Origin: Candidatus Cloacimonadales bacterium
Lineage (GTDB): Bacteria; Cloacimonadota; Cloacimonadia; Cloacimonadales; DAONDQ01
Length of the DNA stretch: 64,000 nt
Reading direction: 5' to 3'
Assembly: GCA_963662275.1 (NCBI GenBank)
Contig: OY759316.1
Coordinates: 4,224,001 to 4,288,000 of the forward strand
The notes below the pieces were generated by a model. The model saw only the letters and a program-made list of their open reading frames with translations. It searched no databases and was not told the DNA's origin. The translations under genes were made by a program, and so were the position numbers. Positions 21,659 through 50,666 of the stretch are shown in pieces (the first letter of the stretch is position 1; the number at the start of each line of letters is the position of its first letter).

Positions 21659-21826
21659 GCATCCTACTCCACAACCGCGAAATGCGGAGCTACGTGTTCA
21701 GTAGGATCGGCATCCTACTCCACAACCGCGTAAATGCGGAGCTACGTATTCAGTAGGATCGGCATCCTACTCCACAACCGCGAAATGCGGAGCTACGTGT
21801 TCAGTAGGATCGGCATCCTACTCCAC
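21659..21826. repeat. Tandem 51-52 bp REP mosaic array (BIME-like), about 3.3 units
   Basis: Unit gcatcctactccacaaccgcgaaatgcggagctacgtgttcagtaggatcg, nearly identical copies. Confidence 0.92.
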
Positions 21827-22852
21827 ATCAGAATCAAAGAGATTGAGTTGCTGAAGTTCAGGCTCTTTGATGCCGAAATGACGATATGCTTTTCTTGTTG
21901 CTCTTCTACCCTGTAATGTCCGATCCAGGAACCCTTGCTGAATCAGGTAAGGTTCAAAGATTTCTTCGATTGTACCCGGGTCTTCACCCACAGCAACCGC
22001 AAGCGTTTTTATTCCAACAGGTCCACCCTGGTAGTTTTCCATGATCGTCACGAGTATGCGTTTATCCATATCATCCAGTCCGGCATGATCTACATTCAGC
22101 ATATCCAGCGCTTTCAGGCAAAGAGGATGTGTAATCTTTCCATCTCCCATGATCTGGGCATAATCACGCACGCGACGTAACAAACGATTGGCAACACGTG
22201 GCGTTCCCCTGCTTCTTTTGGCAAGTTCAACAGTGGCTTTATCTTCCATTGGTAAATCAAGAAGTTTAGCTGTCCTTTTCAAAATAGCTTCAATAGACTT
22301 CTGATCATAATAATCCAATCTCAGGACGATTCCAAACCTGTCTCTCAGGGGAGAAGTCAGTAATCCTGCACGGGTAGTGGCACCGATCATAGTGAAGGGT
22401 TCGAGTTCTATTTTTAAACTGCGGGCACTTGGACCGCTATCAATAATAATTTCCATTTCAAAATCTTCTATTGCAGGATAGATATATTCTTCAATCACAT
22501 GGTTGAGACGATGAATTTCATCTATAAACAGTACTTCATGACGTTTCAGATTCGTAAGGATTCCTGCTAAATCAGAAGGTTTCTCCAGTACCGGACCGGA
22601 ACTGACTGCCAGCGGAACACCCAATTCATTTGAAATGATATGCGCCAGGGTAGTTTTGCCTAAACCGGGAGGACCGAAAAGCAGCACATGATCGAGAGGT
22701 TCTTTACGCAATTTAGTTGCTTGGATAGAGATATCCAGTAATTGCTTAATTTGATCCTGCCCAATGAAATCTGCAAGTGTCTTGGGTCTGAGGGCACGGT
22801 CAAAGTCTTTTTCTTCTGTCATTTCGATGGGATTTGTGATGCGTTCTAACAT
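21818..22852 (-). CDS. ruvB: Holliday junction branch migration helicase RuvB
   Basis: LRPKTLADFIGQ, GPPGLGKTT, FIDEIHR, GATTRAG, RGTPRVANRLL, EPYLIQ. Confidence 0.98.
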   Translation of the reverse strand: MLERITNPIEMTEEKDFDRALRPKTLADFIGQDQIKQLLDISIQATKLRKEPLDHVLLFGPPGLGKTTLAHIISNELGVPLAVSSGPVLEKPSDLAGILTNLKRHEVLFIDEIHRLNHVIEEYIYPAIEDFEMEIIIDSGPSARSLKIELEPFTMIGATTRAGLLTSPLRDRFGIVLRLDYYDQKSIEAILKRTAKLLDLPMEDKATVELAKRSRGTPRVANRLLRRVRDYAQIMGDGKITHPLCLKALDMLNVDHAGLDDMDKRILVTIMENYQGGPVGIKTLAVAVGEDPGTIEEIFEPYLIQQGFLDRTLQGRRATRKAYRHFGIKEPELQQLNLFDSDVE

Positions 22853-23017: not shown

Positions 23018-23067
23018 GAAAAGGGATGAAGACAATCCCCCCCTTGAGAAGGGGGGTAGGGGGGTCT
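23018..23067. repeat. C/G-run palindromic repeat (same family as the 43.0-43.2 kb element)
   Basis: gaaaagggatgaa..aatcccccccttgagaaggggggtaggggggtct matches the right end of 43022-43219. Confidence 0.75.
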
Positions 23068-23350: not shown

Positions 23351-24478
23351 TCAAGGGGAAATCCTGACACAACGGAAGCCTAACATGTAGCTGTTGTCAG
23401 TCGATTCGTCCATGTTCCGAACGGAAATTTTGCAGGAGTAGGCAGCGTCGCTCCAGCTACCACCGCGATACATGCGGTCCCACCCGTTAACATCATTATG
23501 CGGGTTAGTCTGGGCACCACTCGGATATGTGTCAAACAAGTCCCAATTCCACTCCCAGACGTTACCGGACATATCAAATATGCCTAATTCGTTGGCTGCC
23601 AATGTTCCTACAGTATTAGCTGTGTAACCTGAGTTGCCACTATAATAAGCCCCCCACCAAGCCACCACATTGATATCATTGCTTCCGCTATAAGTATAAT
23701 TATGGGTCGAATTACCACCTTGTGCCGCAAATTGCCATTCCATCTCGGTAGGAAGGCGGTAGCCATTAGCAGTCCAAGAGCAATATACATGAAATTGATA
23801 GATGGGATCGGAATTCCAACTCCCGGGCCAGGTCGCAGGATTAGTACCATAATCAGCGCCATTGTTGTAAATACTGTTGTTGTAACTATAACAGGGAGTC
23901 AACCCTTCCTGCAGACTCCGACGATTACAATACTCTATGGCATTGAACCAGGAGACCCTCTCTACAGGTCCGTTGGTTACACCTGTGAACCAAGATGGAT
24001 TCACTCCCATCACAGCTTCATAGTCTGCCTGGGTTGTTTCATATTTATCCATAAAGAAGCTGGAGAGGGTTACATCAGAAGTTCCATTATTGAAAGTACC
24101 GCCGGCTACTTTGATAAAGGATTGAACCTGAGTGGCATCCTCGACCGGATTGTCTCTGGCAATTACTTTCACTTTGTACTGCGTGCCTGCCACCATACCA
24201 TCTCCGGCTGGAGTCCAGATCATCGTTTTTGCTACGGGAAGTTTGGGGACACTGTTACCAATGTCTCCGCTAACGGCAGTTGGGTAGATATTATAGGTGC
24301 TGCCACCATCATTGGAAACCATAAGAGTTACTTTACAAATACCATCGGCTGTCAAATTATAGGTAATCGTGACTTGTCCTGAAGAGAAAGTGGCGGCAAC
24401 GTTTTCTACTACAGGTGCGGCGGCAAAGGCATAAGATGCTAGGATTACGAGGAATATTGCTAAGATAAGTTGTTTCAT
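23351..24478 (-). CDS. Secreted Ig-like + FGE-sulfatase (C-type lectin fold) domain protein
   Basis: Signal peptide; MDKYETTQ, PVE.VSWFNA..YCN, GYRLPTEMEW, NELGIFDMSGNVWEW, RGGSW, GFRCVR. Confidence 0.92.
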   Translation of the reverse strand: MKQLILAIFLVILASYAFAAAPVVENVAATFSSGQVTITYNLTADGICKVTLMVSNDGGSTYNIYPTAVSGDIGNSVPKLPVAKTMIWTPAGDGMVAGTQYKVKVIARDNPVEDATQVQSFIKVAGGTFNNGTSDVTLSSFFMDKYETTQADYEAVMGVNPSWFTGVTNGPVERVSWFNAIEYCNRRSLQEGLTPCYSYNNSIYNNGADYGTNPATWPGSWNSDPIYQFHVYCSWTANGYRLPTEMEWQFAAQGGNSTHNYTYSGSNDINVVAWWGAYYSGNSGYTANTVGTLAANELGIFDMSGNVWEWNWDLFDTYPSGAQTNPHNDVNGWDRMYRGGSWSDAAYSCKISVRNMDESTDNSYMLGFRCVRISP

Positions 24479-24489
24479 TTTACTCTCCC

Positions 24490-25188
24490 TTACTTCAGCA
24501 AGACCAGTTTTTTGGTCATATTTACAGAAGGCGTTAACAGTTTATAAAAGTAAATACCGCTGCTGTTGCCTTTACCATTCCAAATCAAATCATGAGTTCC
24601 GGCAGTTAGCGGGAATGTTTTCACGGCTTGTCCACGCAAGTTATAGATAGTTACGCTACCGGTTTCTCCTGTCTTCACAGATACACTGATGTTTGTACTT
24701 TTGCCTGTCTGGAAGGGATTGGGATAAGCACTATTCAGGAATGATATTGCTGTAATTCCGGGACTCTGGCTATCTGTGACGGTAACACTCACAGGTCCGT
24801 GCATCGTGTTTCCGGCACTCATCTCTACGCTTTCCAGCCAATAATAATAGGTATTGCTGCTTTCGACTTCATTGTCCAAAATCGTATAACTATGCTGCTC
24901 AGAAGTATTGGACGCAGTTACAAGGGCTTGATTTAAACGTAACGCGTCGCTAAGAATACCGGTTTGAGAACGGTATGCATTGAAACCAAGCAATGCTGTT
25001 TCGGATTCTGTTACCCAGGTTAAATTTACAAAGTAATCAGTCGTGGCAATTGCTGTGAAAGAGCTGAGTTCCACAGGCAGAGTCTCGTTCGTAATTGCAA
25101 ATGTTCCTGATTCTCCGAAACCGGTCAGGGCAAAGATGCTTCCTGCGCTGAAAAGCAGCAGGAGAGCGAAGAGTAGTTTGTGTTTCAT
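24490..25188 (-). CDS. Secreted protein: short N strand, LPVELSSF domain, FlgD/T9SS-type CTD (no cargo domain)
   Basis: Start MKHKLL after AAGGAG; LPVELSSFTA; AYPNPF...IYNLRGQ...SSGIYFYKL..TKKLVLLK. Confidence 0.85.
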   Translation of the reverse strand: MKHKLLFALLLLFSAGSIFALTGFGESGTFAITNETLPVELSSFTAIATTDYFVNLTWVTESETALLGFNAYRSQTGILSDALRLNQALVTASNTSEQHSYTILDNEVESSNTYYYWLESVEMSAGNTMHGPVSVTVTDSQSPGITAISFLNSAYPNPFQTGKSTNISVSVKTGETGSVTIYNLRGQAVKTFPLTAGTHDLIWNGKGNSSGIYFYKLLTPSVNMTKKLVLLK

Positions 25189-25343: not shown

Positions 25344-25804
25344 CCCCCTTGTACACCCCCGTTAACAAATTCTGGTTTGCATACCAACTTGCCTTGTGAA
25401 ATGTCATTTATCACATTTAGTCAAAGTCTTAAATAATGGTTATGAATAACCATTCAACATTGCTTCGGCAAGTTGAAATCCAAAGATCGCCAGAAGTAGA
25501 TGGTGGAATCATTTACGTAACCATTTTATTTTATGTCTATGCAGGTATTTTTGTCAATAAAAATATCAGTGATATCCGTAAGCACATTCTAAGGTTACAA
25601 TAATTAGGATATTGCATTACAATAAAAGCCTGTAAAATATGATCCGATATTTCTTGGATTTTGGGTAGTCTGTTTGTAATCAACAAAAAATGCATAGAAT
25701 TATGACAACTATAATTAGTAAAAAGGAAAAAATCCTTGCTCTTTAAATTTCATTTTAAAAGATGTCGCAATTAAAGATAGTATTTTCCAGTAAAAGGAGA
25801 AGCA

Positions 25805-27130
25805 ATGAGACTCAAATCTTTTCCTGGAGGTGTACACCCTCATGACAATAAGCACTATTCCAAGAAAGCGCAAGTGGAAGAAATGCCTTTGCCAGGCAAA
25901 GTTGTCATACCTCTATCGCAACACATTGGGGCACCTGCCAAACCGATCGTGCAAGTGGGTGATAAAGTTCTTACCGGTCAGATGATCGCTGAGCCGGGCG
26001 GATTTGTTTCAATTCCCATGCATGCCTCGATTTCAGGCACTGTTACCAAAATCGATCTCTTTTCTCATCCAGCAGGGAATCGTCAAATGGCTATCGAAAT
26101 AACCGGAGACGGCACCGATGAATGGGTGAAGTTAGAAGACAATCCGGATTTCTTGAATATGTCTGCCAAAGACATGAAAGAGAAAATAGCCAAAGCAGGT
26201 ATCTGCGGAATGGGTGGTGCTGGATTTCCGACACATGTCAAACTTAGTCCCCCTCCTGAAAACGCCATTGATACTGTTATTTTGAATGGTGTAGAATGTG
26301 AACCTTACCTGACATCAGATTATCGACTGATGATGGAAAGGGGAGAAGACATTGTTTCCGGATTGAAAGCCATTATGAAAGCACTCAATGCTGCCAATGG
26401 CTATATTGGAATTGAAGTCAACAAGCCGGATGCAATCGCTAAGATGGAACAAATAGTCAAAGGCGAAAAAAACATCAGTGTTGTTGGTTTGCAACTGAAA
26501 TACCCCCAAGGTGCTGAAAAGCAACTGATCTATGCAGCAACCAAACGCAAGGTTCCAGCAAAAGGCGGATTACCGTTGGCTGTTGGTGTTGTGGTTCAGA
26601 ATGTGGGCACAGCAGTAGCTGTTTATGAAGCTCTGCGTTTTGGAAAACCTCTCATTCAGCGCATCGTTACTGTCACTGGAAAGATCGTGAAGAATCCGAA
26701 GAACCTGAAAACACGTATTGGTACTTCCATGCAGGAAATGCTTGATTTCTGTGGCGGAACAACAGGAGAGATCGGTAAGGTCATTTCCGGTGGACCAATG
26801 ATGGGTATTGCCATCGCAACACTGGATACTCCAATTGGAAAAGGCAGTTCAGGCATTGTGATTTTTGATCCAAAAGAAGCTGGAAAAGATGATGAGAATG
26901 TTTGCCTGCATTGCGGACGTTGTATCGATGTCTGTCCCATGGATCTCTTCCCAGCCCAGATAGCTGCCTGTGTCCGAACTGATAAGCTGGAAGAATCACA
27001 GAAAGCTGGTTTGACTGACTGTATGAAATGCGGTAGTTGCGCATATGTTTGTCCTTCGCATATCAAAATTGTCCAGTGGATTGAGATCGGTAAACAGAAA
27101 GTTGCTGAACTGCAACGGAATAAAAAATAA
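25805..27130 (+). CDS. rnfC: Rnf complex subunit C
   Basis: GGVHP, QHIGAP, GMGGAGFPT, ECEPYLT.D, KYPQGAEK, GGPMMG, two 4Fe-4S motifs. Confidence 0.97.
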   Translation: MRLKSFPGGVHPHDNKHYSKKAQVEEMPLPGKVVIPLSQHIGAPAKPIVQVGDKVLTGQMIAEPGGFVSIPMHASISGTVTKIDLFSHPAGNRQMAIEITGDGTDEWVKLEDNPDFLNMSAKDMKEKIAKAGICGMGGAGFPTHVKLSPPPENAIDTVILNGVECEPYLTSDYRLMMERGEDIVSGLKAIMKALNAANGYIGIEVNKPDAIAKMEQIVKGEKNISVVGLQLKYPQGAEKQLIYAATKRKVPAKGGLPLAVGVVVQNVGTAVAVYEALRFGKPLIQRIVTVTGKIVKNPKNLKTRIGTSMQEMLDFCGGTTGEIGKVISGGPMMGIAIATLDTPIGKGSSGIVIFDPKEAGKDDENVCLHCGRCIDVCPMDLFPAQIAACVRTDKLEESQKAGLTDCMKCGSCAYVCPSHIKIVQWIEIGKQKVAELQRNKK

Positions 27131-27166
27131 TCGAAATTATATAAAGTCATCCTTCAAGGAGGATTC

Positions 27167-28255
27167 ATGGAGAATAAATTTGTCGTCTCTGCTGCGCCTC
27201 ATTTACATGATAGGACATCAGTTTCCTTTGTAATGTGGCAGGTGGTCATTGCCCTTATTCCGGCTTTGATTGCTGCTGTTTATTTCTTCGGAATTCAATC
27301 TCTGCTTCTTACTCTTTATGGTGGCTTTGCTGCCATGGCTGCAGAAGCCCTGATTCAGAAATTCCGTAAAAAACCTATTACGATTATGGATGGCAGTGCT
27401 TTCCTAACTGGTATGCTGGTTGCCTTCAATCTGAATGCCGGTACACCCTGGTGGCTGACAGTTGTTGGCTCAGTATTTGCCATTGCGATCGGAAAACATG
27501 CCTTTGGTGGTTTGGGAATGAACCCGATGAACCCGGCACTCTTAGGACGTGCCTTTGTTCTTGCTTCCTGGCCTACAATGGTAACAGCCGGTTGGATACC
27601 AACACTGAAGAATTCCATCAATGGAATAAATATGGCTGATATTCCAATCCCTAATCTCCAGGCAATTTCACCGAAAGCCTATACGCTCCTGACTTCAGCA
27701 ACCCCTCTGAATGTTGCCAAGTCAATGCGGGATACTACCTTTGTCCAAACCATGACAACGAATCCTGTCCAAAACTCACAACTTCATGATCTCATACAGA
27801 ATAGCCTCGTGAACTTTCAAAATCTTCAGAACCTGTTCTGGGGAAATATTGGCGGTTCCTTTGGTGAAGTTTCTGCTTTCGCACTTTTATTTGGTGCTTT
27901 ATGGCTAATTCATAACCATATCATTGAATGGCGGATACCACTCAGTTATATCATAACTGTATTTGTGTTGGGCTTCTTAATTGACGGGATGTCAATTTCA
28001 AATGCTCTCTTCCAAGTATTGGCTGGTGGTTTGGTTCTGGGTGCCTTCTATATGGCAACAGATCCTGTTACCTCTCCCATGACTAAGAAGGGAAGGGTCA
28101 TCTTTGGAATTGGCTGTGGTATTGTTACAATGTTCATCAGGTTTAAGGGTGGATATCCGGAAGGTGTCTGTTATGCTATCCTGTTAATGAACATTGCCGT
28201 ACCTTTAATTGATAAATATACGGTTCCTCGTGCTTTCGGGGAGGTGAAGAAATGA
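27167..28255 (+). CDS. rnfD: Rnf complex subunit D
   Basis: GGLG.NP.NPAL, FMN site TSATPL, GEVSA, MATDPVTSP, GYPEG. Confidence 0.97.
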   Translation: MENKFVVSAAPHLHDRTSVSFVMWQVVIALIPALIAAVYFFGIQSLLLTLYGGFAAMAAEALIQKFRKKPITIMDGSAFLTGMLVAFNLNAGTPWWLTVVGSVFAIAIGKHAFGGLGMNPMNPALLGRAFVLASWPTMVTAGWIPTLKNSINGINMADIPIPNLQAISPKAYTLLTSATPLNVAKSMRDTTFVQTMTTNPVQNSQLHDLIQNSLVNFQNLQNLFWGNIGGSFGEVSAFALLFGALWLIHNHIIEWRIPLSYIITVFVLGFLIDGMSISNALFQVLAGGLVLGAFYMATDPVTSPMTKKGRVIFGIGCGIVTMFIRFKGGYPEGVCYAILLMNIAVPLIDKYTVPRAFGEVKK

Positions 28256-28854
28256 AAGAAATCATCAAATTAGGTGTTATCTTATTTTTGTTCTGTGCCA
28301 TTGGCAGTGGCGTTCTTGCTTATGTGAATGAAATCACCAAAGACAAGATCAAAGAAAATAAAAAATTAACGGAAGATGCTGCCCGATCTGAAGTCTTACC
28401 AAATGTGAAGTTCGATGGTCCTTTCACGGCAAATGCCGGAAAACCGGATTCCCTGGTTTATTATATGGGAAAAGACACGGATGGTAATATCGTAGGTTAT
28501 ACTTTTGTAGCAGCAGGTCGTGGCTATAGCAGCACCGTGAAAACAATGGTATCTGTCAGTCCTGAATTCCAGGTATTGAAAATCAAAGTTATCGAACAGA
28601 ATGAAACCCCCGGTCTTGGAGCTAATTGTTTGAAGGACGATTTTGCACCACGTTTCGAAAAGATGAATATTACAGACCTGGTTGTTGATAAAGATGGGGG
28701 AAAGATCAAATCTATCACTGGTTCCACCATTTCAACAAGAGCTATAACCAAATCAATTCGCAATGCATTAATGATTATGAAGAATGAAATCGAAACGAAT
28801 CCTAAATCAGCAGAACCTGCTGTGAAGGTTGCGTTAGCAGGAGGTTCCTTATGA
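28252..28854 (+). CDS. rnfG: Rnf complex subunit G
   Basis: GY.S, ETPGLG, ITGSTIST FMN-binding motif. Confidence 0.95.
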   Translation: MKEIIKLGVILFLFCAIGSGVLAYVNEITKDKIKENKKLTEDAARSEVLPNVKFDGPFTANAGKPDSLVYYMGKDTDGNIVGYTFVAAGRGYSSTVKTMVSVSPEFQVLKIKVIEQNETPGLGANCLKDDFAPRFEKMNITDLVVDKDGGKIKSITGSTISTRAITKSIRNALMIMKNEIETNPKSAEPAVKVALAGGSL

Positions 28855-29450
28855 ATCTGATAAAGGAATTTACCAAAGGGTTTGTGAAAGAAAACCCGAC
28901 ATTTGTTTTGGTTTTGGGAATGTGCCCAACACTTGCCACGACTACTTCACTGAAGAATGCCATTGGTATGGGTGTGGCAGCCACATTTGTCCTCGTATGT
29001 TCAAATATGATGATTTCCCTGATCAAGAATGTGACTCCTTCCAATATCCGCATTCCGATATATGTTGTGGTTATTGCAGCTTTCGTTTCCATTGTGGATA
29101 TGATGATGGCTGCCTATACACCACCTCTATATAAAGCGCTTGGAATATTCATTCCTTTAATCGTGGTGAATTGTATCATTCTAGGAAGAGCAGAAGCATT
29201 TGCTGGTAAATACGGTTTTCTTCCTTCCACAGCAGATGGATTGGGAATGGGTATTGGCTTTACCTTAGCGCTATCCGTGATGGCAACCATACGTGAACTA
29301 CTCGGGACTGGTCAGATTTATGGTACGGATATCATGCCACAAGGTTATCTCGCTAATCCTATGTTAGCTGCTGTATTAGTTCCCGGTGCTTTTTTCACAT
29401 TGGGATTCCTGATGGCATTAGTAAAAATATTAAGAAAACAGGAATCGTAG
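28851..29450 (+). CDS. rnfE: Rnf complex subunit E
   Basis: ENPTFV..LGMCP.LA, IPLIVVNCIILGRAE. Confidence 0.97.
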   Translation: MNLIKEFTKGFVKENPTFVLVLGMCPTLATTTSLKNAIGMGVAATFVLVCSNMMISLIKNVTPSNIRIPIYVVVIAAFVSIVDMMMAAYTPPLYKALGIFIPLIVVNCIILGRAEAFAGKYGFLPSTADGLGMGIGFTLALSVMATIRELLGTGQIYGTDIMPQGYLANPMLAAVLVPGAFFTLGFLMALVKILRKQES

Positions 29451-29459
29451 GAGATAAGT

Positions 29460-30065
29460 ATGGAATATTTAGGCAATATCTTCATTATGGCGATTAGCGC
29501 CATACTAATACAAAACTTTATCCTGGCAAGATTCCTGGGTCTATGTCCCTTCCTGGGTGTTTCCACAAAAATGGATTCTGCTTTTGGAATGGGAATGGCG
29601 GTTATTTTCGTTATGACCCTGGCATCTTCGCTAACTTACTTGATTTATGCATACCTGCTGATTCCCAATCAACTTGAATATTTAAGCACAATTGCCTTTA
29701 TATTGGCAATCGCTGCCTTGGTTCAATTTGTAGAAATGGTAATCAAGAAGAACGCACCTGCTTTGTATAAATCATTAGGTATTTACTTACCTTTGATCAC
29801 AACAAACTGTGCTGTCTTGGGTGTAGCTTTACTGAACTTTATTGATAAATGGCCTAATGGTAAATCTTATAACTTCTTAGATTCTACATTGAATGGTTTC
29901 TTTTCCGGTGTGGGATTTACGGTTGTATTGTTACTCATGGCTGGAATTCGTGAAAGATATGAATTCATAGAAATACCCGAATCCATGCGTGGTTTTCCCA
30001 TTGCCCTCATTACGGCTGGCTGTATGGCTCTTGCCTTTATGGGCTTTGCCGGATTAAAGTTGTAA
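29460..30065 (+). CDS. rnfA: Rnf complex subunit A
   Basis: FLGLCPFLGVS, LPLITTNCAVLG. Confidence 0.97.
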   Translation: MEYLGNIFIMAISAILIQNFILARFLGLCPFLGVSTKMDSAFGMGMAVIFVMTLASSLTYLIYAYLLIPNQLEYLSTIAFILAIAALVQFVEMVIKKNAPALYKSLGIYLPLITTNCAVLGVALLNFIDKWPNGKSYNFLDSTLNGFFSGVGFTVVLLLMAGIRERYEFIEIPESMRGFPIALITAGCMALAFMGFAGLKL

Positions 30066-30075
30066 GGGGGGATAT

Positions 30076-30891
30076 ATGTTATCTATCATTTTATTACCCG
30101 CTCTTCTCATCGGTGGTTTGGGTTTATTATTTGGACTTGGCTTAGCTTATTCTGCCAACAAATTCCTCGTGGAAACTGATCCGCGTGTGGACTTGATCAT
30201 CGAAGCTTTACCTGGTGCCAATTGTGGTGCTTGTGGAATGCCCGGCTGTGGAGGTTATGCTGAAGCAATCGTTAATGCGGGTGCTCCTATTGATAAATGT
30301 GCTCCAGGTGGAGCTGCAACCTCAAAGAAAATAGCTGAGATTATGGGTACAGAAGCTGGCAATCATGTAAAAAAAGTAGCTTTCATCCATTGCTCTAGCG
30401 GTGGAAGTAATAATACAAATCTTCATTACAAATATGAAGGAATTGGTACCTGTGTTTCCGCTGTCAGTTATGCTGATGGTCCTAATACATGCCGTTGGGG
30501 ATGTGTATTCCAGAATGACTGCCTGCGGGCTTGCCCATTCGATGCAATATCCTTGAACGAAAATGGCATGCGTATTATTGATGCAGAAAAATGCACAGCT
30601 TGCGGTAAATGCGTCAAAGCCTGTCCTCGTCATCTGATAGAACTGTATCCTTATGAAAATCATGATGTACATATTGTATGTTCTTCACATGATAAGGGTC
30701 CTGAAGCCAAACGCGTATGCGGTGCTGGAAAACCTTGTATCGGTTGCGGTATTTGCGTTAAGAACTGTCCTGTAAATGCGATCAAGCTGGATAATAACCT
30801 GGCTGTTATTGATTATAAGTTATGTACAAACTGTGGTAAGTGCGCTACAGTCTGCCCAACCAAATGTATCATTGATTGCAGGGTTTCATAA
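30076..30891 (+). CDS. rnfB: Rnf complex subunit B
   Basis: LPGANCGACG.PGC and multiple 4Fe-4S motifs. Confidence 0.97.
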   Translation: MLSIILLPALLIGGLGLLFGLGLAYSANKFLVETDPRVDLIIEALPGANCGACGMPGCGGYAEAIVNAGAPIDKCAPGGAATSKKIAEIMGTEAGNHVKKVAFIHCSSGGSNNTNLHYKYEGIGTCVSAVSYADGPNTCRWGCVFQNDCLRACPFDAISLNENGMRIIDAEKCTACGKCVKACPRHLIELYPYENHDVHIVCSSHDKGPEAKRVCGAGKPCIGCGICVKNCPVNAIKLDNNLAVIDYKLCTNCGKCATVCPTKCIIDCRVS

Positions 30892-30935: not shown

Positions 30936-33047
30936 GTTTGCCCAGAATGTTTTCTGCGCCGATGGACTGGAAGAAGTCCTGACACCTAATCAGCGGGAAG
31001 TCAACTCGAGGTCAAGGGCGTTGCCGGCAACGGCAGGGTCTGAAGTAAGACGCAGAGGGAATATGGAACATAGCGCAAGTGAACTGATGTTGGTTTGTAG
31101 AGTGGGTAACCTTTCTAAAAGTGGGAAAGCCCGAAAGCTGGATAACTCTACAGATTATGACAGATGGCTTCATATTCAGGCAGGAAAACTTAACTGGGGA
31201 AGCCTGTTATTGTCTACTTAAGGTAGTAGCTTCGATCAAGTTGAAAGATAAGTGAGAAGCCAAGCGATAGCAGGTGGCAGATGATTCCGTAGTAGTGATT
31301 AACCTTTTGCCTATGAAAGCTGGTGACAGTCTGGAGGATAAAACAAAAGGGACAGCATTCACGGTAATGCTGAGGGCTGTATCTCAAAAGGATACAGTTC
31401 ATGCGAAGGGATGAAGATAATCCAAAGGGATGATTTGAAATGTGGAAAGTAATCGATGAAAAGTGAGAAACGAAGGAAGAAGCTGAAATGCTTCGAGGCT
31501 CGGTTTGACAGTGGTGACGAACTTCCTTTCAACCCCGACCGCACGAGACTGATTAGTCAGGCAAAGCTCAAAAGCAGCAGTTCTGTCATATTGCTATATG
31601 CTAAAGAAGGCAGGACACCCTGATGAAGAGACATTCATCCTCGATGAACACCGCAAAACGAATCACAATGAGACAGGAAATGTCATGAGAAAATACTACA
31701 GTTTAATCGACAAAGTGTACTCACTGTCCAACCTGTATGCTTCCTTCACTTCGGTGAAACAGAATAAAGGTGCATCAGGCATTGATGGGCAGAGTCTAGA
31801 AAACTTTGATGAACAACTGGTAGTGAACATCAACCAACTTCACGATGAACTAATGGCAGGCACTTATGAGCCTTCACCGGTAAGACGTGTAGAGATACCC
31901 AAACCCAATGGCAAAATGAGACCGCTAGGCATTCCAACGGTAAGAGACAGAGTAGTGCAGCAGGCAATCCTGAATATCATACAACCGATATTTGAGCCTG
32001 ACTTCCATCCGTCCAGTTATGGCTACAGACCGCATCGGTCTTGCCAACATGCCGTAGCGAAAGCTCAGCGTTTTCTTACAGCGTACAATTTGGGTTATGC
32101 TGTGGATATGGACTTATCCAAGTGTTTTGACACCTTAGACCACGAACTGATATTGAGCCGTCTGAACAGGAAAATCAGTGATGGTACATTGCTGAGATTA
32201 ATCAGCCGTTTTCTCAAATCAGGAGTAATGGTCGATGGGGATTTCAAAGCTACTGAGATAGGCAGTCCGCAAGGTGGAGTAATCTCACCCTTATTGATGA
32301 ATATCTATCTGGATGAGTTTGACCAGAGGATGAAACAGCGGAATATCAGGATAGTACGTTATGCTGATGACATCCTGATATTTGCTCCGACCAGGAAAAA
32401 GGCAGAGCAATATCAAAAGATAGCGACAGCGATACTTGAAGAACTTCGCTTGCAAGTCAATCTGGAAAAGACTCATATCAGCAGTGTCGAAACAGGAATC
32501 AGCTATCTGGGATTTTTCATCAAAGGAAGCCGTGTCTGCATCGACAAGGAGCGTTTGAAACGTTTCAAGGATAAGATACGTAAGCTTACTCCCCGCAACA
32601 GTGGCATCCCAATATCCATGACGATAGGAAGCCTGAATCCTGTACTAAGGGGATGGGGTAACTATTTCAAAGTTGCGAGTTGTAAAAGCATCTTTGCGAG
32701 CCTGATGGAATGGATACGAAGGAGGCTTCGAATGAAGAAGATGCGTGAATGGAAGAGCTGGAAAGCATTCCATAAAGCAATGCGCAGACAAGGCTTCAAG
32801 GGAGAATGCCCAAAACTATCTATGACCAGATGGCGTAACGCTCAGAGCTTCCACTTATGCTTTGCCTTGCCGAACAAGTGGTTTGAAGAAATGAAGTTGT
32901 TTGATTTGACATCACTTCAGACAAGTGTTTTATTTAATTACTACGAGTAATTACAAGGATTATCAGGAGCCGTGTACGAGACCCGTACGCACGGTTCTGT
33001 GAGAGGGATGATGCTGGAATTAATTAGCCAGCATCACCCTACTCGAT
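30936..33047 (+). mobile_element. Group II intron, class C-like (5' boundary approximate)
   Basis: Starts gtttgccc right after a hairpin + T tract; short D5 gagccgtgtacgagacccgtacgcacggttc (32967-32997); D6 ending ccctactcgat; encodes RT/maturase. Confidence 0.88.
31685..32950 (+). CDS. ltrA: Group II intron reverse transcriptase/maturase, no endonuclease domain
   Basis: GASGIDG, RPLGIPTVRDRVVQ, SYGYRP, GSPQGGVISP, RYADD, NPVLRGWGNYF; likely start MRKYYS. Confidence 0.95.
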   Translation: MRKYYSLIDKVYSLSNLYASFTSVKQNKGASGIDGQSLENFDEQLVVNINQLHDELMAGTYEPSPVRRVEIPKPNGKMRPLGIPTVRDRVVQQAILNIIQPIFEPDFHPSSYGYRPHRSCQHAVAKAQRFLTAYNLGYAVDMDLSKCFDTLDHELILSRLNRKISDGTLLRLISRFLKSGVMVDGDFKATEIGSPQGGVISPLLMNIYLDEFDQRMKQRNIRIVRYADDILIFAPTRKKAEQYQKIATAILEELRLQVNLEKTHISSVETGISYLGFFIKGSRVCIDKERLKRFKDKIRKLTPRNSGIPISMTIGSLNPVLRGWGNYFKVASCKSIFASLMEWIRRRLRMKKMREWKSWKAFHKAMRRQGFKGECPKLSMTRWRNAQSFHLCFALPNKWFEEMKLFDLTSLQTSVLFNYYE

Positions 33048-47104: not shown

Positions 47105-48286
47105 ATGCACTGGCAAAAAAACCTGTTATGCTTTTTCATTTTTGTTGAATGCTGTCTCTTTTTAAATGCTGCACCATTTACCATCAACAACAACACCAGA
47201 ACTGACAGTCCTCCAGATAGCGCTGAAGCGACTTCACAATTAATTGAACTGGATAATGTTAATCCTCAAGTTTCTGTCAACACTCCCAACGGAGTGCTGA
47301 CATGGATGAGCGGGGAAATTCACAATATCACCTGGAGTGCAACGGATTCGAATCTGTTTCCTAACCAGGTGAATATTGTTCTGAGTATGGATGGTGGAGC
47401 TACATATCCCACTTTAATTGCAGTTGGTGAAGTGAATGACGGTGAATACTCCTGGACAATACCAACAATGACTTCGTTCCTGGCAAAAGTGAAAGTTATT
47501 GCCTTGGATAGTTTTGGGAATGTTGGTTCTGACCATAGTGATGGCACTTTCACTGTACCAGGTCAGATCGTTTCAGTTACATCTGGTATCGCAATGGACA
47601 CCGTTGATCCAGTGGCTGAGTTGGTAAAACCGGATGCTACTACAGTTGGCTACATCGATGAGCAGAATGAAATTCAATGGAGTGCAAGTGATAACCATCT
47701 GATAGATCAGCCCATTCAACTTCAATATCAGAAGAACAGCACCGCTCCCTGGGTGAATATTCAGGCTGCTCTGGAAAATACCAGTTCGTATCTCTGGACA
47801 GTGCCGGATGTCGTTACTCCGGAAGCGCGAGTTTGTTTAGTCGTGACAGATACATTTGGTAATACAGCCAGCGAAATCTCCAATTCATTCTGCATTAAAC
47901 ATGCGGAACCAGCAACACCGCTGGGTGTTTCCATCACGAGATTGAATAATCAGGATGTAAGGATATCCTGGAATGCTGTAACTAAAAACATTCATGATAT
48001 ACCCATCCAGCTCTCTTCGTATCAAATACTGTATAATGATACTTCAGGACCAGAAAATGACTCTGATTATCAACTACTGGCTCAGGTTTCCTGTAGTGAT
48101 ACAAATTATGAATTTACTCCGACTGGAACACTAGGTAATTCTTTTCATTCCTTCTATCGAGTTTTAGCGATTAAGGATTACGACAAACGTTCCAATAATA
48201 CTCCTACAGGATTAGTTGATAGCACTAAAAAAGCAGCTTTTCAAACAAGCAATCATTCGATCATCAATAGGTTAAAACAAAAATAA
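47105..48286 (+). CDS. Secreted scaffold-like protein: 2 Ig-like domains and a truncated FN3-like domain
   Basis: Signal peptide; I.W.A.D...W..P...A.V.....D.FGN..S..S..F; C-terminal SWN.V...YQI...FYRVLA. Confidence 0.75.
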   Translation: MHWQKNLLCFFIFVECCLFLNAAPFTINNNTRTDSPPDSAEATSQLIELDNVNPQVSVNTPNGVLTWMSGEIHNITWSATDSNLFPNQVNIVLSMDGGATYPTLIAVGEVNDGEYSWTIPTMTSFLAKVKVIALDSFGNVGSDHSDGTFTVPGQIVSVTSGIAMDTVDPVAELVKPDATTVGYIDEQNEIQWSASDNHLIDQPIQLQYQKNSTAPWVNIQAALENTSSYLWTVPDVVTPEARVCLVVTDTFGNTASEISNSFCIKHAEPATPLGVSITRLNNQDVRISWNAVTKNIHDIPIQLSSYQILYNDTSGPENDSDYQLLAQVSCSDTNYEFTPTGTLGNSFHSFYRVLAIKDYDKRSNNTPTGLVDSTKKAAFQTSNHSIINRLKQK

Positions 48287-48295
48287 GGAGATGTT

Positions 48296-49477
48296 ATGAG
48301 AAGTGCTATCCACACCTTCATCCTCATCGTTGTTTTTATACAATTGTTCACTTTTTGTTATGCTATTTTACCTGAAGTTACTAACTCTTCTGCTGTCCAG
48401 CGTACGGATGGCAGCAAAATAGTAGATATTTACTACGATATATCATGTGAAACTCAAACAACAGTCTACATCAGTTTAGTAGTCTCCAACGATAATGGAA
48501 CAACATTTATGATCACACCCAAAAAAGTAAACTTGAGTGGAGATTGTGGTAAGAAAACATTCGCTCAAGGTCTCTCCCAACATAGTATTCAATGGAATGC
48601 AGGAAATGAGTCACGGAAGTTTGATGGTAGTGGCTTTAAGTTTAAAGTGCAAGTGTGGAATAAGATACCAATTCCACCTAACTTCGTTTTAGTTGAAGGT
48701 GGAACTATTAATAATGGTTTATATAATGTAGATATAGGGACTTTCTATATAGATATGTATGAACTTACCCAGAAAGAGTATTCAAAAATTATGGGACATA
48801 ATCCTGTAAATGATTATCCTATGGATGTACATGGTACAGGTGATTTTTATCCAGTCTATTATGTCTCATGGTACAATGCCATAGAATATTGCAACAGGCG
48901 AAGCATAAATGAAGATCTGATCCCCTGCTACAGTTACACAACATATGGGACAGACCCTGCAAATTGGCCTATAGGTTGGAATACCAATGTCTCAAATCAT
49001 ACGAATATATCCTGCGATTGGACTGAAGCCAATGGCTATCGTTTACCCACTGAGATGGAGTGGATGTATACTGCGCGCGGAGGTAATCAGACGACGCATA
49101 ATTATACATATAGCGGGAGTGATAACGTCAACGATGTGGCTTGGTACGGGTCGTATCCACCAGCAGACGGTGGAGGTAACTCAGATATGACAACTCATAT
49201 TGTAGGTGGAAAGTTAGCTAATGAACTTGGTATATTTGATATGAGTGGCAATATCTGGGAATGGTGTTGGGATCAATGGGATAGACTTTCCCCTTACGTA
49301 GATGCCCCATATGGCTCTGGGAGTGGTGGTTTCCGTATTAGTCGAGGAGGTTGCTGGAAATACAGTCCAAGGTTCTGTGCTATAACAATTAGGAGCGGAG
49401 ACACTATTTATCCAGGCAATCGATCCATTGGATTCCGTGTCTGCAGGAATTATCAGAATTTCACTTCTCGCTTCTGA
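48296..49477 (+). CDS. Secreted Ig-like + FGE-sulfatase domain protein
   Basis: QRTDGSKIVDI; GYRLPTEMEW; NELGIFDMSGNIWEW; GFRVCR. Confidence 0.92.
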   Translation: MRSAIHTFILIVVFIQLFTFCYAILPEVTNSSAVQRTDGSKIVDIYYDISCETQTTVYISLVVSNDNGTTFMITPKKVNLSGDCGKKTFAQGLSQHSIQWNAGNESRKFDGSGFKFKVQVWNKIPIPPNFVLVEGGTINNGLYNVDIGTFYIDMYELTQKEYSKIMGHNPVNDYPMDVHGTGDFYPVYYVSWYNAIEYCNRRSINEDLIPCYSYTTYGTDPANWPIGWNTNVSNHTNISCDWTEANGYRLPTEMEWMYTARGGNQTTHNYTYSGSDNVNDVAWYGSYPPADGGGNSDMTTHIVGGKLANELGIFDMSGNIWEWCWDQWDRLSPYVDAPYGSGSGGFRISRGGCWKYSPRFCAITIRSGDTIYPGNRSIGFRVCRNYQNFTSRF

Positions 49478-49526
49478 AGATGTACTTAATCAAATAGGTG
49501 AATATCATGATACATAAGGAGATCTT

Positions 49527-50666
49527 ATGAAAAATAGAATACGTACGTTCATTGTTATCGTTTTTTTTATTCTACTGCTCACCTTTTGCTTTGCAATTCA
49601 ACCTCAAGTTGATAGTGTTACAGCGAGCCAAAGAACTGATGGCAGTAAGATAGTTGATATTTCTTTTAATGTTACATGCTCTAATCAAGATAGTGTATAT
49701 ATCATTTTAAAGCTATCAGACGATAGTGGGGTAACATACAAAAAGAAACCCACAAGGGCAAACCTATCCGGAGATATCGGCTGGGTCGATCTCTCTACAG
49801 GAAACTCCAGACAGATCATTTGGAATGTTGGAAATGAATTGGAATCCTTTAATAATGATCAGTATAAATTCAAAGTCCAAGCTTGGGATAAGCAGCCGAT
49901 ACCATCAAACTTTATTCTGATACAGAGTGGAACTTATAATAATGGGGTAGCAAATATTGCCATATCATCTTTTTACATTGATAAGTATGAGGTTTTACAG
50001 GAGGGAGATGGTTCTTATCTGCAGGTGATGGGAACTCGTCCTTCTGACCAATACCATGGTGCAGGTGCTGGTTATCCTGTTAATAATGTTACATGGTTCA
50101 ATGCTATTGAATACTGTAATCGAAGAAGCATGCAGGAAGGATTAACCCCTTGTTATAGTGATAGTACAAGTTCCTATGGAAACTATGGCACTAATCCTGA
50201 TAACTGGCCTGTTGGATGGAATACAGAAGGCAATCAAGGAAATGTATTATGCAATTGGACAGCCAATGGATATCGATTACCAACTGAGATGGAGTGGATA
50301 TTTGCGGCTCGTGGAGGTAATTCAACTCACAATTATACTTATAGCGGAAGCAACGACATTAATTCCGTGGCATGGTATGGGGGAAATTCACATGATTCCC
50401 TTCATGTTGTTGGTACAAGAACGGCAAACGAACTAGGTATCAATGATATGAGTGGTAACGTCTATGAATGGTGTTGGGATAAATGCAATCAGAATTCCAA
50501 TGTTTTTTCAGAATTCCCGTACGGTCCCACGAGTGGTAATTATCGTATAAGTCATGGTAGCGCTTGGAGATACACTTCTGAATTATGGTGTACATTAAGA
50601 TATCGAACCACTGACTTACCAACATATACAAATAATTGCTTTGGCTTTCGAGTATGTCGAAAATAA
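49527..50666 (+). CDS. Secreted Ig-like + FGE-sulfatase domain protein (paralog)
   Basis: QRTDGSKIVDI; GYRLPTEMEW; NELGINDMSGNVYEW; GFRVCR. Confidence 0.92.
   Translation: MKNRIRTFIVIVFFILLLTFCFAIQPQVDSVTASQRTDGSKIVDISFNVTCSNQDSVYIILKLSDDSGVTYKKKPTRANLSGDIGWVDLSTGNSRQIIWNVGNELESFNNDQYKFKVQAWDKQPIPSNFILIQSGTYNNGVANIAISSFYIDKYEVLQEGDGSYLQVMGTRPSDQYHGAGAGYPVNNVTWFNAIEYCNRRSMQEGLTPCYSDSTSSYGNYGTNPDNWPVGWNTEGNQGNVLCNWTANGYRLPTEMEWIFAARGGNSTHNYTYSGSNDINSVAWYGGNSHDSLHVVGTRTANELGINDMSGNVYEWCWDKCNQNSNVFSEFPYGPTSGNYRISHGSAWRYTSELWCTLRYRTTDLPTYTNNCFGFRVCRK

Follow-up and report, generated by a model that had tools for sequence, protein, structure and literature searches.

In the 64,000-nucleotide stretch of DNA analyzed here (the window, positions 4224001-4288000 of the genome of a Candidatus Cloacimonadales bacterium), two adjacent genes on the minus strand likely form a carrier-cargo docking pair. 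The upstream gene, which we call the anchor or carrier, encodes a small protein ending in a type IX secretion system (T9SS) C-terminal sorting domain (CTD). The downstream gene, which we call the cargo, encodes a CTD-less protein with an immunoglobulin-like (Ig) domain followed by a domain of the formylglycine-generating enzyme (FGE) type. The new result of our analysis is that this pair is strictly conserved in both directions: anchors are followed by Ig genes, and Ig genes are preceded by anchors. The best-supported mechanism, to which we give about an even chance, is that a short peptide at the start of the mature anchor binds the cargo's Ig domain by strand addition, with the CTD acting in trans. 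The genes and their parts lie as follows, with domain limits partly from AlphaFold2 (AF2) models and FN3 standing for fibronectin type III.

24490..25188, minus strand: anchor (carrier) gene, 232 amino acids from MKHKLL, with signal peptide, docking peptide, PVEL (FN3-like) domain and T9SS type-A CTD
25129..25188, minus strand: signal peptide, residues 1-20 (MKHKLLFALLLLFSAGSIFA), a hydrophobic leader by reading, with a putative cleavage site
25090..25128, minus strand: candidate docking peptide LTGFGESGTFAIT, residues 21-33 (core ES..F.I), from conservation and coil in AF2
24769..25083, minus strand: PVEL (TLPVELSSF...) FN3-like domain, residues ~36-140, from AF2 strands at 40-137; missing from some orthologous anchors
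24493..24726, minus strand: T9SS type-A CTD, residues 155-232, from PF18962 and TIGR04183
24479..24489, minus strand: 11-nt spacer with GGGAGAG, ribosome-binding-like, before the cargo ATG; by sequence reading, operon-like coupling
23351..24478, minus strand: cargo gene, 375 amino acids, with signal peptide, Ig-like domain and FGE/C-type-lectin fold, and no CTD
24149..24415, minus strand: N-terminal Ig-like domain, residues 22-110, ending YKVKVIARD, from AF2 strands
23363..24121, minus strand: FGE-sulfatase (FGE-type C-type-lectin) domain, residues 120-372, from PF03781 (5.7e-37)

The anchor and cargo genes are co-directional and 11 nt apart. We followed this arrangement forward, from anchor to downstream neighbor, in 74 loci from named public genomes (set 1) and in 151 sampled genomes of the phylum (set 2), two sets that overlap in genomes; the source records of the homologues carry the names Cloacimonetes or Cloacimonadota. 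In set 1, every peptide-bearing small CTD protein (9/9) was followed on the same strand, at a gap of -1 to 11 nt, by a gene encoding a leader and the Ig domain, and the single small CTD protein lacking the peptide (L037) was not. In set 2, 21 loci fully matched the anchor's first 60 residues; an Ig gene lay downstream in 20 of them, and the 21st ends at a contig end, giving 20/20 observable cases. Control loci encoding large PVEL-CTD proteins had no Ig gene downstream (0/9). Because 42 candidates per genome were scored in set 2 and 417 further matches lay outside those listed, the count of anchor-bearing genomes is at least about 22. The Ig domain itself was found at E <= 1e-10 in 35 of the 151 genomes. 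In the reverse direction, a gene encoding peptide plus CTD lay directly upstream of 24 of the 29 best Ig loci, or 24/28 observable, L141 being cut off. The exceptions were L142 (a 152-aa Ig fragment), L145 and L146, with another partner or none, and L147, whose partner is an Ig-repeat protein without a CTD. Same-strand gaps across related pairs ranged from -4 to 18 nt; the one exception, L140, reflects a mis-called Ig start. Thus gene-pair conservation, which a first-pass annotation made from the letters of this DNA had proposed as a check, was borne out on both sides.

The pairing also persists where most of each protein has changed. Anchors L126, L136-L140, L143 and L144 lack the PVEL domain; these ~136-147-aa proteins consist of a leader, the peptide (e.g. 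FIAEGESNIFEI), a ~20-residue linker and the CTD. Once the CTD is removed, such a minimal anchor would be a ~35-residue peptide whose sole conserved feature is the motif. On the cargo side, the Ig head occurs without an FGE domain in proteins of 812-833 aa (L027, 4222-6660; L040, 4150-6651; L042, 1774-4275), and the L068 cargo combines Ig-FGE with six repeats and one more FGE domain. Given PVEL-less anchors and FGE-less cargos, the constant parts are peptide plus CTD in one gene and leader plus Ig domain in the next. That only these parts are constant is our strongest argument for a functional partnership between the peptide and the Ig domain. The variety of cargos also fits the 'exchangeable tip' that the first-pass annotation had imagined.

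Two further observations concern these variants. The tail of the L040 cargo contains 'IRYTTDG'-type repeats. In one lineage (L083, 3495-4328; L081; L104; L105), the docking peptide is present three times in tandem before the PVEL domain, as GYGESSVVSIT twice and then GESNEFAIT; such an anchor could hold several cargos, or the repeats could be a recent duplication.

The same conservation bears on whether the anchor gene is functional at all. Its genome encodes no other 'cargo-less' PVEL-CTD protein of this type, as might be expected if the gene were a functionless, decayed remnant of a larger CTD protein. However, its frame is intact and retains a leader, its N-terminus is conserved among the 52 small proteins of the anchor alignment (39-78% identity), and its position before an Ig gene is kept in many genomes. 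Conservation therefore already contradicts the idea of a remnant, which we regard as extremely improbable.

Within the anchor, the peptide stands out. G23, S27, F30 and I32 are each at least 90% conserved in the 52-member alignment, and the pattern [EVDIT]S..F.[ILV] directly follows the leader in 47 of the 52 small homologues. On average, the majority residue has a frequency of 0.72 across the peptide (residues 21-33), whereas the PVEL domain reaches 0.58 and the CTD 0.56. When the anchor was modeled alone by AF2, the peptide was coil, with a predicted local distance difference test score (pLDDT) below 50 at residues 23-29. The peptide is the best conserved segment of the anchor outside its modules, and therefore the segment that AF2 leaves disordered is the most conserved one. 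It has the properties looked for in a donor strand, being an N-terminal extension that is conserved and, in the model, unstructured alone, and it retains a generic edge-strand pattern, with F.I on one face. The post-leader motif occurs once in the bacterium's own genome.

The rest of the anchor is as the first-pass annotation had described it, with a leader, a short peptide, an LPVELSSF domain and a sorting CTD recovered from the open reading frame (ORF), the profiles and the AF2 model. Por_Secre_tail profiles match residues 155-229 above their cut-offs (PF18962, 34.5 bits versus 27; TIGR04183, 45.6 bits versus 23). The AF2 model, built from the 52-sequence alignment, has a mean pLDDT of 87, with a helix at residues 2-21, coil at 22-39, and a pair of beta domains modeled with confidence, one at 40-137 and the other at 150-230; Foldseek matched it to tandem FN3 domains and to the PorU entry 6za2. 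From its start the protein runs from leader to LTGFGESGTFAIT, then TLPVELSSF... and the sorting domain, and the junction A|LTGF after the leader is aligned among homologues. A homologue search returned many proteins of ~215-260 aa spanning the whole query. The PVEL+CTD module also terminates more than 40 larger proteins of the same genome.

For the cargo, the earlier claim that it lacks a CTD held up. PF03781 is its sole profile match (128.2 bits, cut-off 23.3, residues 120-372), with no Pfam match to the ~90-aa Ig-like domain. A PVEL/CTD profile that matches 268 ORFs of the genome matches none of its 34 FGE ORFs, and PF18962 is absent from the precomputed Pfam domains of the 120 best cargo homologues (0/120). 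The Ig domain has block-mean pLDDT values of 81-95 in the AF2 model of the cargo and comprises seven strand segments (23-32, 35-43, 48-55, 69-71, 74-77, 83-88 and 102-109, the last being KVKVIARD). A low-confidence linker, residues 111-119, comes next; the last strand and this linker therefore place the domain boundary at YKVKVIARD, as first claimed. A look-up of the Ig domain in a protein atlas gave best scores of 0.81-0.84, which is the level of leads.

The cargo's FGE domain is matched by structures of TvpA, CarF, FGE and PorK. Its closest solved relative is TvpA of Treponema denticola (PDB 2y3c; phmmer 3.5e-28, Foldseek 5.7e-17), and catalytic FGEs and PorK score far below it (~1e-13 by phmmer). 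To judge from these relationships, the domain likely has a ligand-binding rather than an enzymatic role. They also bear on an interpretation in which the roles are reversed, such that the Ig-FGE protein is a periplasmic assembly factor or chaperone, related to PorK, GldK and GldJ, and takes up the N-terminal end of the small CTD protein, itself the real export. In keeping with this idea, the cargo has a Sec leader only, and its FGE domain matches PorK structures and the GldK profile TIGR03525 (4.3e-21), at 75.7 bits versus a cut-off of 350. However, among solved structures TvpA, a binding protein, is closer to the cargo than PorK, the Ig domain also occurs on the unrelated 812-833-aa proteins, and the genome encodes 34 FGE paralogues of diverse architecture. 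We consider reversed roles improbable.

To assess binding, we predicted the complex of Ig residues 20-120 with anchor residues 21-145, using separate alignments for each. The interface score (ipSAE) was 0.48 (runs of 0.48, 0.64 and 0.47), versus 0.00 for the best of three controls; contacts agreed by at least 82% between runs, and the partner pLDDT was at least 74. The score passes a mark that 116 of 157 solved complexes attain, as do 2 of 215 mismatched pairs; with our own alignments as input, these counts hold only roughly. Scores of 0.60 or less comprise 18 of the 157 solved complexes plus both passing mismatches, and because this range holds few solved complexes and both mismatches, we take the result as a weak pass. 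It weakly suggests binding between the two proteins; because the genomic prior is strong, we read it as modest support for this and as uninformative on geometry. Of the check proposed by the first-pass annotation, the predicted association was thus recovered, weakly.

Several results weigh against the proposed mechanism, and most concern the strand. The complex score says nothing of whether the peptide is the contact or where it is placed. The Ig domain folds alone in AF2, with pLDDT of 81-95 over seven strand segments, and therefore a missing G strand is not demonstrated in this domain, which the first-pass annotation had called 'incomplete'; high confidence is no proof of completeness either, so that the missing strand is neither shown nor excluded. 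That annotation had drawn the missing strand from a likeness to a complete domain in the protein encoded at 47105, and this did not survive comparison. With hhalign the two domains were related at probabilities of 2.8% and 11.7%, only the VS.DGG..Y core being aligned confidently. Seeded with the 47105 domain, jackhmmer retrieved 22 domains, spread over 11 proteins of the same genome, and none of the nine N-domains of Ig-FGE proteins (0/9), and phmmer of that domain against solved structures returned nothing under E = 0.4. Nor did the peptide resemble the 47105 G strand, as had been proposed. With a position-specific scoring matrix (PSSM) built from 22 G strands (consensus D.SD..F[ST][IL]), the peptide of the window scored -5.3, a value equaled or exceeded by 41% of 1483 control N-termini, and 14% of 37 anchor-like N-termini lay beyond the control 95th percentile, which is no enrichment. 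We therefore rejected both the 47105-domain homology and the G-strand PSSM as evidence for a missing strand. Beyond the strand itself, the counted genomes are kin, so that the counts are not independent, and adjacency may reflect co-regulation without binding. A PorV-like gene in the genome scores 152 bits, under the cut-off of 250. Finally, in the literature listings and passages we consulted, no description was found of a CTD acting in trans, or of a protein that lacks a CTD being transported by the T9SS while bound to one that has it.

These points lend weight to two other interpretations. The proteins may bind, but not by insertion of the peptide into the Ig domain as a strand; for example, the CTD or PVEL domain could contact the Ig or FGE domain, with the peptide recognized by the T9SS itself or by an enzyme of processing or attachment. 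A complex prediction that carries no contact placement, an Ig domain that looks self-sufficient to AF2 and a peptide whose likeness to a G strand is not significant are all compatible with this. However, the pairing is kept in anchors without PVEL and cargos without FGE, and although the CTD is common to 268 ORFs, none precedes an Ig gene unless it also has the peptide or an N-terminal motif related to it. We judge binding of this other kind to be rather unlikely. Alternatively, the two genes may be co-regulated neighbors whose products make no contact, each acting on its own: the small CTD protein as a surface peptide or spacer, and the Ig-FGE protein as a lectin that is periplasmic or otherwise exported. 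Taken alone, adjacency and an operon-like layout would fit this, and the complex prediction favors the pair only weakly. Absence of contact would leave unexplained, however, why a protein with no functional domain carries a conserved disordered peptide, why that peptide co-occurs exclusively with this Ig domain across architectures, and why the FGE proteins constantly lack a CTD of their own. We find it an unlikely explanation.

We favor docking through strand addition and envisage it as follows. The product of the first gene would be a carrier with no cargo of its own, intrinsically unstructured at its mature start (LTGFGES..F.IT) and ending in a type-A CTD, the presumed signal for T9SS transport and cell-surface attachment. 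The second product would be exported by Sec without a CTD, as a small Ig-like beta-sandwich followed by a variable ligand-binding cargo, here of TvpA-like FGE fold. The N-terminal peptide of the carrier would bind the Ig domain as an added beta strand; if the Ig domain truly lacks its last strand this would be donor-strand complementation, and otherwise edge-strand augmentation. The CTD, in trans, would take the cargo out through the T9SS, hold it on the surface, or both. A broader version is more tentative, and we hold it possible but doubtful: that this is a split T9SS cargo, in which Cloacimonadota use 'CTD carriers', pared down to a docking peptide and a sorting or anchoring domain, to complete the Ig domain of Ig-tagged, CTD-less binding proteins with a donated strand and so provide their export and surface attachment in trans. 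In that modular scheme one docking principle would serve many cargos (FGE lectins, 800-aa non-FGE proteins and multi-domain giants), and the genome would hold sister solutions, namely minimal anchors of peptide plus CTD, CTD-less Ig-repeat partners, and a pair class sharing a ~25-aa beta motif.

Related pairs are present elsewhere in the same genome. Among its CTD ORFs of 260 aa or less, 8/14 lie 15 nt or less upstream of an FGE gene or overlap it, and every Ig-FGE gene has an upstream partner bearing a leader (9/9). Four of these partners have a CTD. One is the anchor of the window, two are 131-134-aa proteins that start LTSFVVSVEDLALDN or LTGFVISTENSILNN directly before the CTD, and one is a 482-aa protein that starts QTSFAVSTTDTILDN. 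The two short ones, at contig 3036192-3037691 and 3211592-3213122, are minimal anchors of leader, linker and CTD directly upstream of Ig-FGE genes, and these Ig-FGE genes belong to a 'QR...LVDI' Ig subclass. A further four partners are Ig-repeat proteins without a CTD, including one in the window.

47105..50666, plus strand: second, related module, with a 393-aa Ig-repeat/FN3 protein without a CTD (47105-48286) followed by Ig-FGE paralogues at 48296-49477 and 49527-50666

PF03781 is present in both of these paralogues. The 393-aa partner is secreted, with a mature N-terminus APFTINNN..., and ends 9 nt before the tandem paralogues. Three further pairs of Ig-repeat partner and Ig-FGE gene lie elsewhere in the genome, with partners ending ...RRLAE or ...ERSAE. 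Such pairs may follow a similar docking principle without a CTD.

A second class comprises five near-identical pairs in which the gene for a 149-150-aa CTD protein precedes, by 9 nt, that for a 295-314-aa FGE protein with no Ig domain.

Contig 635010-636401: second-class pair
Contig 3267885-3269288: second-class pair
Contig 3646008-3647357: second-class pair
Contig 3761201-3762553: second-class pair
Contig 4325103-4326449: second-class pair

The carrier of this class has a leader ending ...LLYC and then VMYVHLTNGTTAEFQVQDIQQINF, and the cargo starts QMNVHTTTGTSNFNLNEITDITF; in place of peptide and Ig domain, both partners begin with a ~25-aa beta motif that is homologous between them. The genome also contains a 3325-aa ORF with ten FGE-domain repeats (contig 2907597-2917574).

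Around the pair in the window, two regulatory-like signals were found by consensus match only.

25528..25557, minus strand: promoter-like site TTGACA-18-TAAAAT, upstream of the pair
23038..23056, minus strand: terminator-like hairpin, downstream of the cargo gene (5 such hairpins found versus 2.8 expected)

Because the region has 9 promoter-like sites versus 7.8 expected from shuffles, the site upstream of the pair is not evidence by itself. We rejected simple gene fission as the origin of the pair because the CTD gene sits upstream, not downstream, of the cargo gene. By eye, one flank (25805-30891, plus strand) resembles an Rnf-type electron-transport operon, with two CxxCxxCxxxCP motifs in its first ORF, and the other (21818-22852, minus strand) looks like a RuvB-like helicase gene; both flanks are possible synteny anchors for orthology. 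Farther along the plus strand, at 31598-32950, lies a reverse-transcriptase ORF (RVT_1, 150 bits). The genome has 18 RVT_1 matches, mostly multi-copy sets of identical score with open frames of 444-465 aa, and this resembles a retroelement that is proliferating, perhaps a group II intron. The idea that the FGE genes of the window encode variable proteins of a diversity-generating retroelement (DGR), which the TvpA match had raised, was rejected: when the last 250 nt of the three genes were compared with the genome by blastn, no template-repeat-like copy appeared, only paralogue-level matches of ~67-92% identity, with full-length ones at ~70%.

By definition, a T9SS substrate has a CTD as part of its own polypeptide; should a CTD be able to work in trans by way of a small docking peptide, the T9SS secretome would be larger than CTD counting predicts. 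If true, the pair would be the first example of piggyback export or display for the T9SS, and would extend donor-strand-type docking beyond pili. It would also offer a compact natural tag and catcher for surface display, made of a ~13-residue peptide and a ~90-residue Ig domain. Cloacimonadota are abundant in anaerobic digesters, and such docking would explain how their greatly expanded CTD-less FGE/lectin-fold families arrive at the surface.

The source genome, a single contig of 4.38 Mb that is 99.97% complete, has genes for both the T9SS translocon and its sortase. A profile search found a SprA match above the cut-off (TIGR04189, 282.6 bits) and a PorU-type sortase (NF033707, 582 bits versus 420). 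Cloacimonadota are listed among the phyla possibly having a T9SS in the introduction of a review (PMC11285876). Judging by titles and the starts of abstracts, publications that pair donor strands with the T9SS concern type V fimbriae or review the field broadly, and in a listing of those that pair the T9SS with piggyback transport, apparently none is on T9SS co-transport.

Among known systems, PorK, GldK and GldJ, which are FGE-fold lipoproteins of the T9SS and gliding, resemble the cargo in having an FGE fold in a T9SS-bearing organism. The cargo differs from them in its below-cut-off GldK match, its lack of a lipobox Cys, its 34 paralogues, its Ig head and its dedicated carrier. TvpA, the best solved relative by sequence and by fold, represents the FGE-type variable proteins, the FGE-type lectin fold being a DGR target according to one article (PMC11661182). 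TvpA, however, is a lipoprotein without this Ig domain or a carrier, and no template repeat was found in the genome for the three FGE genes of the window.

Donor-strand complementation and exchange by an N-terminal extension is the assembly principle of chaperone-usher pili. As there, the proposed pairing would have a short N-terminal extension add a beta strand to the Ig-like domain of another protein, and the extension of the anchor is unstructured alone in the AF2 model, with alternating hydrophobic residues (F.I) that would face the core. Unlike those pili, the pair comprises a single carrier, which bears a T9SS CTD, and a single cargo, with no polymer, and a missing G strand is not demonstrated for the cargo's Ig domain. 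In type V pili of Bacteroidota, FimA and Mfa1 undergo strand exchange and maturation is linked to T9SS-secreted proteases; the subunits are lipoproteins, with C-terminal strands donated after proteolysis. The likeness here extends to the superphylum, to the proposed strand exchange at the surface between Ig-like or transthyretin-like folds and to the link with the T9SS, but the candidate donor is instead the mature N-terminus of a CTD protein. Matches to the usher PF00577 and the PapD chaperone PF00345 were absent from the genome (0 each, with positive controls responding), as were matches to the FimA family PF06321 (0, with a positive B. thetaiotaomicron control). With usher, PapD-like chaperone and FimA-type pilin all missing from the genome, we place the pair outside both systems.

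Ordinary type-A cargo of the T9SS carries its CTD in cis, is cleaved by PorU and becomes attached to anionic lipopolysaccharide. The anchor shares with such cargo a bona fide CTD, in a genome with SprA and a PorU-type sortase, but here the CTD protein has no functional domain, and the functional protein is a separate, CTD-less polypeptide. A parallel to this division of labor is Tat 'hitchhiker' co-export and peroxisomal piggyback import, in which only one subunit has the signal (PMC9251779). The translocon, the membrane and the docking principle are different, and for the T9SS such transport is only proposed here; in all of these, a folded partner that has no signal would be carried by one that bears it.

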